Shown here one piece after another: positions 28,016-32,000 of a stretch of DNA of 32,000 bases (position 1 is its first letter; each line of letters begins with the position of its first letter). Location: positions 510,001 through 542,000 of the forward strand of contig CAZETV010000001.1 in assembly GCA_964514965.1 (NCBI GenBank), written 5' to 3'. The position numbers were made by a program, and so were the translations under genes. The notes under the pieces are model-generated. The model saw only the letters and a list, made by a program, of their open reading frames with translations, was not told the origin of the DNA and did not search any database. The DNA comes from Candidatus Hadarchaeota archaeon (GTDB lineage Archaea; Hadarchaeota; Hadarchaeia; Hadarchaeales; Hadarchaeaceae).

Positions 28016-28138
28016 GCGGGGATAACTCAACCTGGGAGAGTGTCGGTCCGTCGTTGAGACTATCTCACACGGGGCAAAACTGAAGACACCCAGTCGGACA
28101 TCCGAATGTTGGGGGTTCAAATCCCCCTCCCCGCACCA
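28016..28138 (+). tRNA. tRNA gene with encoded CCA and a ~46-nt intervening sequence in the anticodon arm; isotype unresolved (Asp-GUC by one parse, Phe-GAA by another)
   Basis: The acceptor pairs GCGGGGA with TCCCCGC, followed by A and CCA. The D arm is ACTC-AACCTGGGA-GAGT and the T arm is GGGGG-TTCAAAT-CCCCC. The anticodon-stem halves are TCGG(T) at 28043 and TCCGA at 28101..28105. Total length is 123 nt against 77 expected. Confidence 0.8.
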
Positions 28139-28277: not shown

Positions 28278-29870
28278 ATGGGGAAAAAATCTCAGACCCG
28301 GGATGCGATTTTGGCCGCGCTGTCCGACGGCAGGTCCAAGAGCCACCGGGACATCGTCAAGAAAACTGGGCTCACCCCGAGTGCCGTGTGGAACACCCTT
28401 CTCAGGTTCTGGAAGGAAGGGGCGGTCCTGCGCACGAAGGAGCCCATCTGCGAATCCGAAAAAGTGTTTCGAGGACGGGCTGGCTTCGTCAGGATCCTGA
28501 GGCCCTATCACCTCTACCTGCTGAAGCCCGAGGAGAGGGGGCAGTTGACCCCCGATGGGCACCAGTTCGTGGGCTTTTCGAAAAAATATCTCGACGTTAG
28601 GGGGGGCGGTAAGGAGAGCAAGGCCAAACTCATTTTGAACATCCTCAAGAAGAACTCGCGCAGGGCTTGGTTCTCGAAGGAAATAGCGGATGCCCTCAAG
28701 GACAGGGGAGTCAAACCCCGCGATGTTATGTCGAACGTCCGGAGATACGAAAGGGCAGGCCTCGTTTACGTCCGGGGCTACCGCACGGAGGAGAGGGAAA
28801 CCCCCTTCAAGGAGGGCTACCTGATAACTTGGGTGGACCAGGCCAAGCCCAGGCAGCGGGCGCTGGACGAGGCGATCGGGCGGACGAGCCTAGCCCTAGA
28901 GAAAAATCGCCTGAGCAGCCCCCTCGTGCAGAGGATCCACATGGTCAGGGACATCATCATGGAATCCTCAAAGCTGAGGGAGCTCGTCGGCACCGCCTAC
29001 ATCCAAAACAAGCTCGGGTGCTCCGAGTACGAGGCCGAGGGGGCGATCACCAGGGCTTTCCAGCTTTATCCAGATCTCAGGGAGGTGAAGCTGTTCAACG
29101 CGTACAAGTACTTCTACCACCCGTCAATGGGCGAGGTGGAGCTCCGAACCGCAATAAAGATGAAGGAGAACTACGTGCGCATCGTGAAGGGCAGGGACAA
29201 CCGCGTGGGGCACAACTGGGAGGCCGTGCCCGAGTGGTTCATCGATAAGTTTACCACGGGTGCTAGGTTCTGGACTCAAGAGCACCGGACGAAGGGGATG
29301 GACCCGAGGCGGATAGCCCTGTACCTGATCAAGCCAGTCGGGGAAAGGAGGAACAGCGCCGAGGTCGACCGGGTCTGGGAGGTGACTCCCGGGGTTTTCT
29401 CCAACCCCGTGACCTACGTGCTCTCGTGCAAGTGGGGCCTAGTGAACAAGAGGGATGTCGACGACTTCCTGGAGGTGCTGAAGTGGAGCAAGGAGTTCGG
29501 GGTCAACACGCCCGACGGGAGGCGGGTGAAGCAGGGCGTGATAGGGATATTCGCGGCAGGCTCGTTTAACCCCAAGGAAGGGGTGAAGCTGAAGGACGGG
29601 ACCCAGGTGAGCCTGGCCACCTACGCGAGCCGGATGAACATCCAGCTCCTGAAGGCCGTCGACTTCAACCAGAGGCTGCACGAGCGGGGATGTCCGAAAG
29701 CCGTAACCGTCCAGAAAATCTGCAAAGTGGCCAAGAATGAGGGAGAGGTCAGGGAGATTCTGGACGCGATCTGGGAGGAGCCCAAGAGAGGCGAAGGAAT
29801 TTTGGGCAAAGCCATGGAGAAGAACAAAGAGCTCTACAAGTTCGAGAGGACGCTCGAGGAAAGCCGATAG
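28278..29870 (+). CDS. Triple winged-helix protein with a C-terminal Mrr/PD-(D/E)xK-like (restriction-endonuclease-fold) domain
   Basis: 530 aa, preceded by AAAGGGGGGAGAC. There are three wHTH-like units (RDAILAALSDGRSKSHRDIVKKTGLTPSAVWNTLLRFWKEGAV; FSKEIADALKDRGVKPRDVMSNVRRYERAGLVYV; a third around LGCSEYEAEGAITRAF). The C-terminal region reads GHNWEAVPEWFIDKF...EVDRVWEV...YVLSCKWGLVNKRDVDDFLEVL...GIFAAGSFN. Confidence 0.6.
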   Translation: MGKKSQTRDAILAALSDGRSKSHRDIVKKTGLTPSAVWNTLLRFWKEGAVLRTKEPICESEKVFRGRAGFVRILRPYHLYLLKPEERGQLTPDGHQFVGFSKKYLDVRGGGKESKAKLILNILKKNSRRAWFSKEIADALKDRGVKPRDVMSNVRRYERAGLVYVRGYRTEERETPFKEGYLITWVDQAKPRQRALDEAIGRTSLALEKNRLSSPLVQRIHMVRDIIMESSKLRELVGTAYIQNKLGCSEYEAEGAITRAFQLYPDLREVKLFNAYKYFYHPSMGEVELRTAIKMKENYVRIVKGRDNRVGHNWEAVPEWFIDKFTTGARFWTQEHRTKGMDPRRIALYLIKPVGERRNSAEVDRVWEVTPGVFSNPVTYVLSCKWGLVNKRDVDDFLEVLKWSKEFGVNTPDGRRVKQGVIGIFAAGSFNPKEGVKLKDGTQVSLATYASRMNIQLLKAVDFNQRLHERGCPKAVTVQKICKVAKNEGEVREILDAIWEEPKRGEGILGKAMEKNKELYKFERTLEESR

Positions 29871-29888
29871 CGTTCCGAACTCAATGAA

Positions 29889-29917
29889 GGGCGGGCCTCA
29901 TCGGGATTTGAACCCGG
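29889..29917 (-). other. tRNA T-arm/3'-half-like remnant (minus strand CCGGGTTCAAATCCCGATGAGGCCCGCCC)
   Basis: A GGTTCAAATCC T-loop consensus is flanked by an imperfect stem. No matching 5' half, D arm or anticodon arm could be built on either side. Confidence 0.3.
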
Positions 29918-30109: not shown

Positions 30110-32000
30110 GTGAGTAAAATTTCAGAAACTGAGCAACATCGTAGACTAAAGGAGCTTTTAGCTGAAAAACTGAAAGAATGGTTCGGCGTTTGTGTACCAG
30201 AGTACCCTTCAGCTGGCCATGAACTGGACATATTTGGCGTCACGCCAGAAGGCGTCTCTATCTATATTGAGATAATATGGTCTCCATCAAGAACTCATTT
30301 TTTGAATGACATAAATATGCTTCAACAATCTGATGCAGACGTAAAAGTGGCGATTGCGAGTCCTGAAATAATCTCAAAAGAGGAGTTTCGCAGGGAATTT
30401 TCGAAAGTTGCTATTGCGCAGCGTCGCGAAGGGCAAGTATTCCATGGAGAGATGTTGAACGGTGAGAAAATTCTTCAAAACAAGGGTTTTATGGACAGTG
30501 ATCTGAAGGGACTCTTTACACAGCTGGTAGCACAAGTAGCACCGTTAAAGAAAAGACCTCCTAGACCAAAGTTAAAGTTCCCCCAACCTCAAATCTCCGA
30601 TACTTTGCCTGATGAGATAAGTGACAGACTTCTATCAAACCTGTTTCCGGTAGCCAGTATGCCTAAGTTTCCAGATGTGGAACAACGGCGCTTAATGGAG
30701 TTTTTGAACAACGCCCTTTATACGTACCTGAAATCAAACCCGAGTTTGCAACAGCATCCCATATTTAGAAGCACCTATTTTTACAAGCCGGATAATAGCA
30801 AGCCGAGGGTGGTCGATGGGCGAATCGTAGCATCGCCAGAATATCTGCCTTCCGGGGAGCTACACTATTGGGTGCACGACTCTGTAACTTTGAGGTTTGT
30901 CGCGTTAGAAGAGATGATTTTTCTACTTGTGGAGCCATGTTACGTTTTCACCGAGGATGAGGAGAAGTTACTTCCCAAAGAAAAAGCCGGGCCACTTACA
31001 ACCAAAAAAATTGCCCATGAGTTCAACAGGCAATATTTGCAGCACATAAGATTTTGGATTTCTACTCTCGCAACTGACAAAGATAAAATTACAATACCAA
31101 CTAGTCTGGGCTCGATAGTTATTTCTGTAAGCGAAGCTGGGGTAAGTGTAAACTTTGGGGGGGGGAGTCAGGTGAATTCTCAACATGATTTCCAAAGCTG
31201 GCATGTAAATGAGCCGGAATTGTTTTTCGGAGGCGGTAATAGACATGTCGACCAGAAAATCGGACTCACACTTTACGGGCCAGCCCAGCTTCCTGATAAG
31301 GCCGATCTCATAAAGTCGATTAATGTGGGGATCGTGGGTACAGGTGAAACAGTTGGTCTCGCCGAAATGTGGATGGAAAAACTAAAGCGTGAGATACCAA
31401 GCAAAAAAGAGTCTGTACATTCTCCTTCATTCATGGGATTTGAAAAGACGTTCAATTGCGTACTTAATGTCGCAGATCAATGGAAAGAGATCATCCCTGA
31501 AAAAGAGATACAGCAACTTGCAGATCTAGAAAAATATAAAGATTGCGTAAATAAAGCTGTCGATTTGTTTGTAGAAAGGCTCCAAAGCTTGGTAGAACGA
31601 GAGCCGCGACCGCAAATCGTTATCTGTGCCATACCTCAAGCTCTTATACGTATAATCGGCAGTCGAAAAACATCTGTAGCAGTTCCAGAAGAAAATGATG
31701 TTGCGGATCCTCTACCCGAAGCGATAGATTTCCGGAGAGCATTGAAAGCTAAGGCGATGGGATTTGGGATACCAACTCAGCTGGCTAAAGAGAGTACATT
31801 TACAGGAAAGACGACCACAGAGGAAAGGCCATTACAAGATGAAGCTATGAGAGCTTGGAACTTCTCTGTTGCTCTGTACTATAAGGCTGGAGGGCTTCCG
31901 TGGAGATTGGCAGAGGCTTCTCCAAGGACTTGCTATATCGGCGTATCTTTCTACAGGGAATATTTTCTAAGCGCAGCCAGAACAAGAACCAGTTTAGTTC
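30110..32000 (+). CDS. Prokaryotic Argonaute (partial, 630 codons, 3' end beyond the window): N-terminal nuclease-like domain + N/L1/L2 (APAZ-like) region + MID + start of a catalytically degenerate PIWI
   Basis: Hand translation from GTG at 30110 finds no stop to 32000; an in-frame TAG at 30059..30061 closes the frame upstream. MID/PIWI hallmarks are DQKIGLTLYGP, DFRRALKAKAMGFGIPTQL and AWNFSVALYYKAGGLPWRL, then TCYIGVSFY. The ORF is absent from the track only because it lacks a stop in the window. Confidence 0.85.
   Translation, partial: MSKISETEQHRRLKELLAEKLKEWFGVCVPEYPSAGHELDIFGVTPEGVSIYIEIIWSPSRTHFLNDINMLQQSDADVKVAIASPEIISKEEFRREFSKVAIAQRREGQVFHGEMLNGEKILQNKGFMDSDLKGLFTQLVAQVAPLKKRPPRPKLKFPQPQISDTLPDEISDRLLSNLFPVASMPKFPDVEQRRLMEFLNNALYTYLKSNPSLQQHPIFRSTYFYKPDNSKPRVVDGRIVASPEYLPSGELHYWVHDSVTLRFVALEEMIFLLVEPCYVFTEDEEKLLPKEKAGPLTTKKIAHEFNRQYLQHIRFWISTLATDKDKITIPTSLGSIVISVSEAGVSVNFGGGSQVNSQHDFQSWHVNEPELFFGGGNRHVDQKIGLTLYGPAQLPDKADLIKSINVGIVGTGETVGLAEMWMEKLKREIPSKKESVHSPSFMGFEKTFNCVLNVADQWKEIIPEKEIQQLADLEKYKDCVNKAVDLFVERLQSLVEREPRPQIVICAIPQALIRIIGSRKTSVAVPEENDVADPLPEAIDFRRALKAKAMGFGIPTQLAKESTFTGKTTTEERPLQDEAMRAWNFSVALYYKAGGLPWRLAEASPRTCYIGVSFYREYFLSAARTRTSLV

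Follow-up and report, generated by a model that had tools for sequence, protein, structure and literature searches.

A short Argonaute module with a predicted nuclease-fold head in a Hadarchaeota genome, where one extra G joins two genes into a single frame

The locus and its predicted product

Does a long archaeal frame that places an extra domain in front of an Argonaute encode a new single-chain defence protein, or a two-gene system whose genes have run together? This question is raised by the end of a 32,000-nucleotide stretch (here called the window) of the Candidatus Hadarchaeota archaeon assembly GCA_964514965.1 (contig CAZETV010000001.1, positions 510,001 to 542,000). A frame on the forward strand (30110..32000) had been described there from the letters alone as a PAZ-less Argonaute with an additional N-terminal domain, and had been proposed as a new single-chain architecture. 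Our analysis showed that the single frame owes its origin to one extra G, which joins two ancestral genes. The locus is probably a short prokaryotic Argonaute (pAgo) defence module of the S2B kind that was acquired horizontally, is kept as a split two-gene operon in its relatives, and is fused here by that one base.

The open reading frame (ORF) was confirmed to run stop-free for 630 codons and to be still open at the window edge; by an arithmetic estimate, the chance expectation for such a run at 43.6% GC is ~1e-16. The identical full-length product, P0001, was found in the protein database on a 1.03 Mb NCBI contig. Its length of 834 amino acids (aa) places the expected gene end near 32614, beyond the window. 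The GTG start at 30110, on which the sequence-only reading had relied, was backed by relatives that start at the same position, and the gene at locus L004 also uses GTG. The protein is predicted to consist, in order, of a PD-(D/E)xK-like head, a Pro/Lys linker, a truncated APAZ, MID, and a PIWI with Ser at catalytic Asp positions. The features are as follows.

30110..30544 (+), N-terminal effector head, aa 1-145, PD-(D/E)xK-like and unannotated (AlphaFold2 (AF2), Foldseek, invariant columns)
30545..30592 (+), Pro/Lys-rich linker, aa 146-161 (PLKKRPPRPKLKFPQPQ), read from the sequence, at the position of the DREN-APAZ 'bridging loop'
30593..31156 (+), truncated APAZ, aa 162-349 (PADLOC models, family alignment)
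31157..31165 (+), G9 homopolymer, codons 350-352, Gly-Gly-Gly (junction alignment, tract-length simulation)
31172..31174 (+), internal GTG at the place where the separate pAgo gene of relatives has its ATG start (junction alignment)
31172..31909 (+), MID region, aa ~355-600 (PADLOC pAgo_I, Protein Data Bank (PDB) sequence matches)
31910..32000 (+), start of PIWI, aa 601-630, continuing past the window to ~32614 (full length of P0001, motif positions)

The limits given earlier (a head of ~145 aa, a Pro/Lys linker, MID at ~369-600 and PIWI from ~601) were essentially right, as judged from the profile matches to pAgo (aa 363-834) and APAZ (aa ~190-348).

The Argonaute half

Profile and sequence matches identify the product as a short pAgo with MID and PIWI regions and no PAZ domain. 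The PADLOC pAgo_I model matched the window fragment over aa 363-629 (E 2e-70) and P0001 over aa 363-834, which correspond to model positions 3-455 of 455 (E 6e-159). When the pAgo half was searched against PDB sequences, the best match was SPARHA 9om4_B (E 5e-84), followed by the SPARDA chains 9qbp_B, 9qbl_B and 9jsb_A (E 1e-77 to 1e-70), SPARTA (~1e-51) and SPARSA (~1e-26); the SPARHA chain and the three SPARDA chains were aligned end to end. A Foldseek search with an imperfect full-length AF2 model placed SPARDA chains at the top and SPARHA 9om4_B at rank 9, and then SPARTA and SPARSA. This model had a mean predicted local distance difference test score (pLDDT) of 64 and a predicted template modelling score of 0.36, with pLDDT <50 across aa 148-173 in the linker region. 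Its poor quality is explained by the presence of only five pAgo-half sequences in the alignment, and we drew no global conclusions from it. Among the profile searches suggested beforehand, those with pAgo and APAZ models gave matches, as described here and below, but Pfam gave none for either the window fragment or full-length P0001, Piwi PF02171 included. A search of NCBIfam returned no meaningful match. The pAgo genes of relatives encode 460-545 aa (among the best 150 matches of a search of 1.84 billion representative proteins).

The claim that the protein is PAZ-less was upheld. We found no PAZ signal between the linker and MID, and no room for one, because the ~190 residues from linker to MID are fully accounted for by APAZ homology. 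In the MID region, the putative pocket for the guide 5'-end contains R542, K546, Q557 and K592 (an RK-type pattern), and the last three of these were invariant across 27 aligned short pAgos. The PIWI region had been called degenerate, and motif positions agree with this: Ser occupies the position of the first catalytic Asp (G611-V612-S613, 31946-31948) and, as S691 in HKSS, that of the third. The register of this second motif is weak, coming from an hhalign match of E 0.13 to human AGO2 PIWI ('YRDG' motif). According to published work, substitutions that inactivate PIWI occur in all short pAgos (PMC12738770).

A truncated APAZ on an S2B chassis

The REase-, SIR2- and TIR-APAZ models of PADLOC matched aa ~190-348. 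A profile of the head-APAZ family, searched against solved APAZ chains, matched SPARHA HNH-APAZ 9om4_A best (5e-42), with DREN-APAZ (~1e-14) and TIR-APAZ (4e-7) behind it. These comparisons place both the pAgo half and the family APAZ closest to SPARHA and SPARDA, in clade S2B, whose chassis has been described (PMC12738770; bioRxiv 10.1101/2023.06.08.544223). The chassis belongs to a clade that is already characterised.

The APAZ region is shortened. In P0001, P0002 and the L004 gene, ~75-90 residues are missing from its first part, whereas they are present in the other 16 family members. For example, the alignment to the PADLOC REase-APAZ model PDLC02415 begins at model position 239 of 423 in P0001 and at position 145 of 423 in P0012. 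The sequence-only reading had equated this region with N, L1 and L2; the APAZ homology stands, but P0001 lacks a complete equivalent. Compared with L001, one of the two closest relatives, the ratio of nonsynonymous to synonymous divergence (dN/dS) was lowest in the head (0.10) and somewhat higher in APAZ (0.16) and the pAgo part (0.19). The module is under purifying selection, and the low ratios indicate that the shortened APAZ is maintained by selection. As a natural experiment, it bears on the question of how much APAZ is required.

The relatives are split two-gene operons

To place the fused frame, we compared it with its family. A search of a 5.8-billion-protein database gave 37 family matches, and P0001 was the only fused protein among them; the rest were head-APAZ proteins of 350-467 aa and short pAgos of ~480 aa. 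The family occurs in at least 10 distinct loci from Bathyarchaeia, Nitrososphaerales and metagenomes, and in each of 10 distinct loci the head-APAZ gene lies directly upstream of the pAgo gene. The two nearest proteins, P0002 (80% identical) and P0003 (88% identical), are encoded on one metagenomic contig by genes that overlap by ATGA, and the L004 genes overlap in the same way. Seven loci in archaeal metagenome-assembled genomes (MAGs) carry both genes (six from Bathyarchaeia, one from Nitrososphaerales), and all of them are split. At the split junctions, the two genes overlap by 4 nt or 16 nt, are separated by small gaps, or meet where a stop is followed at once by an ATG in the same frame.

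No fusion was found at any of 14 further loci with the junction, of which about 9 are distinct, and no other member of this head family was fused among the best 150 matches of the representative library. Locus L011 was considered as a second fusion, since tblastn ran in one frame over both genes, and was discarded because a stop codon lies between them. A scan of genome contigs with P0001 gave no relative, and a scan of metagenomes gave only the L001 contig, already known, and three fragments; no relatives were found on viral contigs. Across the loci compared, no third conserved gene stood beside the pair. One continuous ORF is found only in the window genome and is not a clade-wide trait. The proposal of a new single-chain architecture was not supported by this comparison, as the window protein is a singleton produced by one extra G, and its relatives, including those 80-88% identical, are split.

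The public call for the head-APAZ gene of L004 (4484-5548) starts at an internal Met (285 aa), and the true ORF begins ~70 codons upstream at a GTG. Automated calls of this kind under-report the head domain.

One G at the junction

At the window junction, the G9 run (31157-31165) is uninterrupted, and the corresponding sequences are GGGGGAGG in L001 and GGAGGGGGG in L004. The tract exceeds the aligned G-rich stretch of both of these closest relatives by one base, and the ATG that starts the pAgo gene in relatives reads GTG in the window, at 31172. We simulated other tract lengths. With G8, the upstream gene would encode a 354-aa protein ending in NFGGGVR*, which overlaps the GTG start at 31172 by 4 nt (GTGA); for comparison, P0002 ends in GGVR* and the L004 protein in NFGGGIK*. 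With G9, the frame is an open fusion with a GGGS joint, and with G7 or G10 it runs through a short extension to a stop. The G-run doubles as a Shine-Dalgarno-like tract, and internal initiation of a ~480-aa pAgo at the GTG at 31172 is therefore possible.

The fused frame may be a recent true fusion, a homopolymer sequencing error, or a product of tract-length variation. Since it depends on a single G in a single assembly, the claim of a new single chain is weak. An artefact, to which we give somewhat less than an even chance, would mean that sequencing or assembly added one G to a true G8, and that the cell has a 354-aa head-APAZ protein and a ~480-aa pAgo started at the GTG at 31172. The fusion depends on the longest homopolymer in the window, one G fewer restores both the family ending and the 4-nt overlap, and no second fused family member was found; furthermore, a 1.03 Mb contig from an uncultured archaeon suggests a long-read assembly. 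However, the other seven homopolymers of at least 8 bases in the window break no genes, gene density looks intact, and the assembly is not visibly indel-ridden. The identical 834-aa product also occurs under both NCBI and Logan sources, which may or may not be independent.

It is quite improbable, in our estimate, that the G-run is a slippage-prone tract through which a population switches back and forth between the split form (G8) and the fused form (G9) in a manner resembling phase variation. The tract is uninterrupted here and interrupted in the relatives, and hence more prone to slippage, and the start and frame of the pAgo part stay intact at every tract length, so that no variant would be a knock-out. 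However, a single assembly shows a single state, and the split and fused forms are not known to differ in function. Phase variation by homopolymers has been recorded chiefly in host-adapted bacteria, and we know of no case in Hadarchaeia.

If the ninth G is real, the window would hold a snapshot of the transition from split to fused, brought about and perhaps toggled by slippage in the G-rich ribosome-binding tract where the genes overlap, combined with an undescribed archaeal PD-(D/E)xK effector that is shared with NACHT/STAND proteins and with a minimised APAZ; we advance this combination tentatively, as a possible but rather unlikely state of affairs. That one base suffices to turn the operon into a single chain shows how readily the fused architectures of other clades could have arisen, and 'new architectures' seen in single genomes on homopolymers call for read-level confirmation.

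The head domain

The N-terminal 145 residues gave no family match in Pfam, NCBIfam, PADLOC or PDB sequences when searched as a single sequence. A head profile found nothing among PDB sequences at E ≤ 10, and Pfam scans of 18 individual head sequences at the same threshold gave nothing consistent. PF14280 (DUF4365) was not detected at E ≤ 1 in the window protein, at E ≤ 0.1 in P0001, or at E ≤ 10 in the 18 heads. There was no HNH signal in the head, and the match to 9om4_A was limited to APAZ (residues 107-383 in the profile search and 285-382 in the PDB sequence search). Assignments of the head by sequence to DUF4365/DREN, Mrr/SMEK, HNH or NucS were dropped for want of a family match. The head family is previously uncharacterised, as the sequence-only reading had supposed for an archaeal fused form with a nuclease-like head.

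The AF2 model of the head (pLDDT 90.4) has the topology α-βββ-α-β, with helices at residues 8-25 and 61-73 and strands at 27-34, 37-44, 50-56 and 78-83. The best Foldseek matches in the PDB were NucS/EndoMS, 3dnx, SfsA, Cas4 SSO0001 and Card1 (E 2e-3 to 0.1, probability 0.6-1.0), all of them proteins with the restriction-endonuclease fold. The residues E6, K14, E31, S34, G36-H37-E38-L39-D40, G48, E54, I56, W57, D67, K79 and P85 were invariant in the family, and H10 was nearly so, and this conservation holds at identities down to ~42%. Two of the invariant acids, D40 and E54, lie on β2 and β3, respectively. From the modelled fold, the head is most likely a divergent PD-(D/E)xK nuclease; the nuclease-like character proposed earlier is borne out by the prediction, with weak scores.

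The same head is also found at the N-terminus of P0033, P0035 and P0037, which are metagenomic proteins of ~1050 aa whose other parts are a NACHT NTPase, pentapeptide repeats and a C-terminus resembling TFIIB. Several further uncharacterised proteins carry this head too. Its occurrence on NACHT proteins and others indicates that it behaves as a portable immune effector module. P0033, P0035 and P0037 are candidate archaeal STAND immune sensors that share their effector with the pAgo family, and the head common to the two is a candidate shared effector module of archaeal immunity.

Proposed mechanism

By analogy with solved relatives (PMC12738770, PMC12205087, PMC10810196), the MID pocket would hold a 5'-phosphorylated small guide, probably RNA, and MID-PIWI together with APAZ would bind complementary invader DNA. 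Propagation of the duplex would trigger oligomerisation or filament formation, by which the tethered heads would be brought together. The heads would then cut DNA indiscriminately, with abortive infection or loss of plasmids as the outcome. Our analysis showed the homology, the order of the domains, the modelled fold of the head, the purifying selection and the one-base origin of the fusion; the guide type, the oligomerisation and the nuclease activity are inferred from the solved relatives, and the fused protein is a predicted product.

Several observations weigh against this account of the locus. The extra G is possibly a mere assembly error. The truncated APAZ could change or weaken duplex handling, and the full-length AF2 model is silent on whether a covalent joint fits sterically with filament formation. 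As for the head, its fold matches are weak (best E 1.7e-3, TM ~0.4), the SPARDA DREN chains were absent from its top 50 Foldseek matches, and the canonical Lys two residues after the β3 acid is missing (E54-I55-I56, with I56 invariant). Activity would then depend on K79 or K14 as a substitute Lys. Relocation of this Lys is well known among PD-(D/E)xK enzymes.

The head might instead be an inactive nuclease fold that serves in DNA binding or oligomerisation and acts by sequestration or by recruitment of another factor. The missing β3 Lys, the weak fold matches and the absence of a sequence link to any characterised nuclease would agree with such a role. However, E6, K14, E31, H37, E38, D40, E54, D67 and K79 are invariant and H10 is nearly so, in the pattern of an active site; the head has a dN/dS of 0.10; and there is no conserved third gene able to serve as the effector. 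We therefore consider an inactive head unlikely and retain the predicted nuclease.

Comparison with known systems

For the pAgo half and the family APAZ alike, the closest system of solved structure is SPARHA (HNH-APAZ, PDB 9OM4, PMC12738770). SPARHA and the relatives of the window gene are two-gene operons of clade S2B in which APAZ carries a nuclease head, a predicted one in the window family, and in which PIWI is dead or, in the window family, probably so; the target-triggered filament and nuclease logic of SPARHA may carry over to the window system. SPARHA is bacterial and has an HNH head, whereas the window system is archaeal and has a PD-(D/E)xK-like head; moreover, the APAZ of the window subclade is ~75-90 residues shorter, and in the window genome the module is written as one ORF.

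SPARDA (DREN/DUF4365-APAZ; PDB 9JSB, 9QBP, 9QCC; PMC12205087, PMC10810196) follows the same plan of a ~145-aa α-βββ-α-β head, a ~15-aa loop, APAZ and pAgo. In NbaSPARDA DREN-APAZ, DREN spans aa 1-146 and the bridging loop aa 146-161, and the catalytic D41 lies in β2 (PMC12205087); the corresponding limits in the window protein are aa 1-145 and 146-161. The β2 Asp is D40 in the window protein and D41 in NbaSPARDA, and on β3, E54-x-I56 stands opposite Q60-x-K62. However, the window head has no DUF4365 sequence signal, and the similarity of the family APAZ to SPARDA is weaker than to SPARHA.

Direct effector-APAZ-pAgo fusions have been recorded for SIR2, TIR and DUF4365 (bioRxiv 10.1101/2023.06.08.544223), so the earlier statement that fused forms carry SIR2 was too narrow. 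The S1A SIR2-APAZ-pAgo proteins and the rarer TIR- and DUF4365-APAZ-pAgo proteins (bioRxiv 10.1101/2023.06.08.544223; PMC6299218) resemble the window protein in having effector, APAZ, MID and PIWI on one chain. The S1A fusion is old and clade-wide, whereas the window fusion is a singleton of one genome that arose by a 1-nt homopolymer change and has a head of another family.

We also found single-chain Schlafen(AlbA_2)-APAZ-short pAgo proteins from Thorarchaeota, P0071 (NHI83436.1, 981 aa) and P0118 (MCF2138277.1, 913 aa, partial), which further contradict a restriction of fused forms to SIR2. They were the only fused forms among the best 150 matches of the representative search. This fusion is probably genuine because it was seen in two separate Asgard MAGs. 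Like the window protein, these uncharacterised proteins are archaeal single chains, and their pAgo part is 38% identical to it; they differ in their Schlafen/AlbA_2 head and full-length APAZ.

SiAgo-Aga1-Aga2 of Sulfolobus islandicus is, as is the window system, an archaeal short-pAgo defence system. Its partner, Aga1, is a separate protein, and its effector, Aga2, acts at the membrane. A comparison of the neighbours across loci showed no Aga1- or Aga2-like genes conserved beside the window family.

The novelty lies in an S2B-type system from archaea whose predicted nuclease-fold head had not been described before and whose APAZ is minimised. A 2018 survey found APAZ proteins 'almost exclusively in eubacterial species' (PMC6299218), and the present family extends nuclease-armed short-pAgo systems to Bathyarchaeia, Nitrososphaerales and Hadarchaeia.

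Genomic setting and horizontal transfer

The GC content falls from 0.55-0.575 to 0.436 at ~30000, at the gene start, and nucleotide similarity to L001 sets in no more than ~60 nt ahead of the start codon. On the strength of this GC drop and similarity edge, the module looks horizontally acquired by the Hadarchaeia archaeon. The window itself carries archaeal markers (Hel308 with archaeal domain 4, Tsr3, an ADP-dependent kinase, a PINA-type ATPase and an intron-containing tRNA), and two of its housekeeping proteins cluster at an identity of at least 90% with proteins from Hadesarchaea/Hadarchaeaceae MAGs.

When window positions 30110-32000 were aligned with L001 1969-3860, nucleotide identity was ~0.79-0.87 in head-APAZ and ~0.89-0.93 in the pAgo part, with a step near the junction. 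Synonymous divergence was 0.75 and 0.28 for the two parts, respectively. The pattern points to recombination, with a breakpoint at the boundary of the two genes or close to it.

Just before the GC drop and the pAgo module, a minus-strand segment (29886-29915; TCCGGGTTCAAATCCCGATGAGGCCCGCC) resembles the T-arm and 3' acceptor strand of a tRNA. ARAGORN and Rfam made no tRNA call at these positions. The segment could be what is left of an att site, from an element that had inserted into a tRNA gene beyond the window. An intron-containing tRNA lies at 28016-28135 (+) (Rfam, 48 bits); ARAGORN in bacterial mode found no tRNA in the window and missed this one. L004 also has a tRNA gene, a different one, ~200 nt upstream of its pAgo operon, and the module is thus near tRNA genes in both genomes.

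The 530-aa ORF upstream of the module (28278-29870, +) has a GC content of 0.55-0.575 and showed only a faint N-terminal match to a Csa3-like helix-turn-helix (E 3.5e-4). Its only close homologue was one 534-aa protein on a Logan contig. It was rejected as a conserved upstream gene, being unrelated to the 541-aa gene upstream in L001 and not kept beside pAgo elsewhere. Downstream of the pAgo operon in L004 (9004-13057), there are an EVE-domain gene, an Eco57I/N6_Mtase gene and an N6_N4 methyltransferase gene, a context that resembles a defence island.

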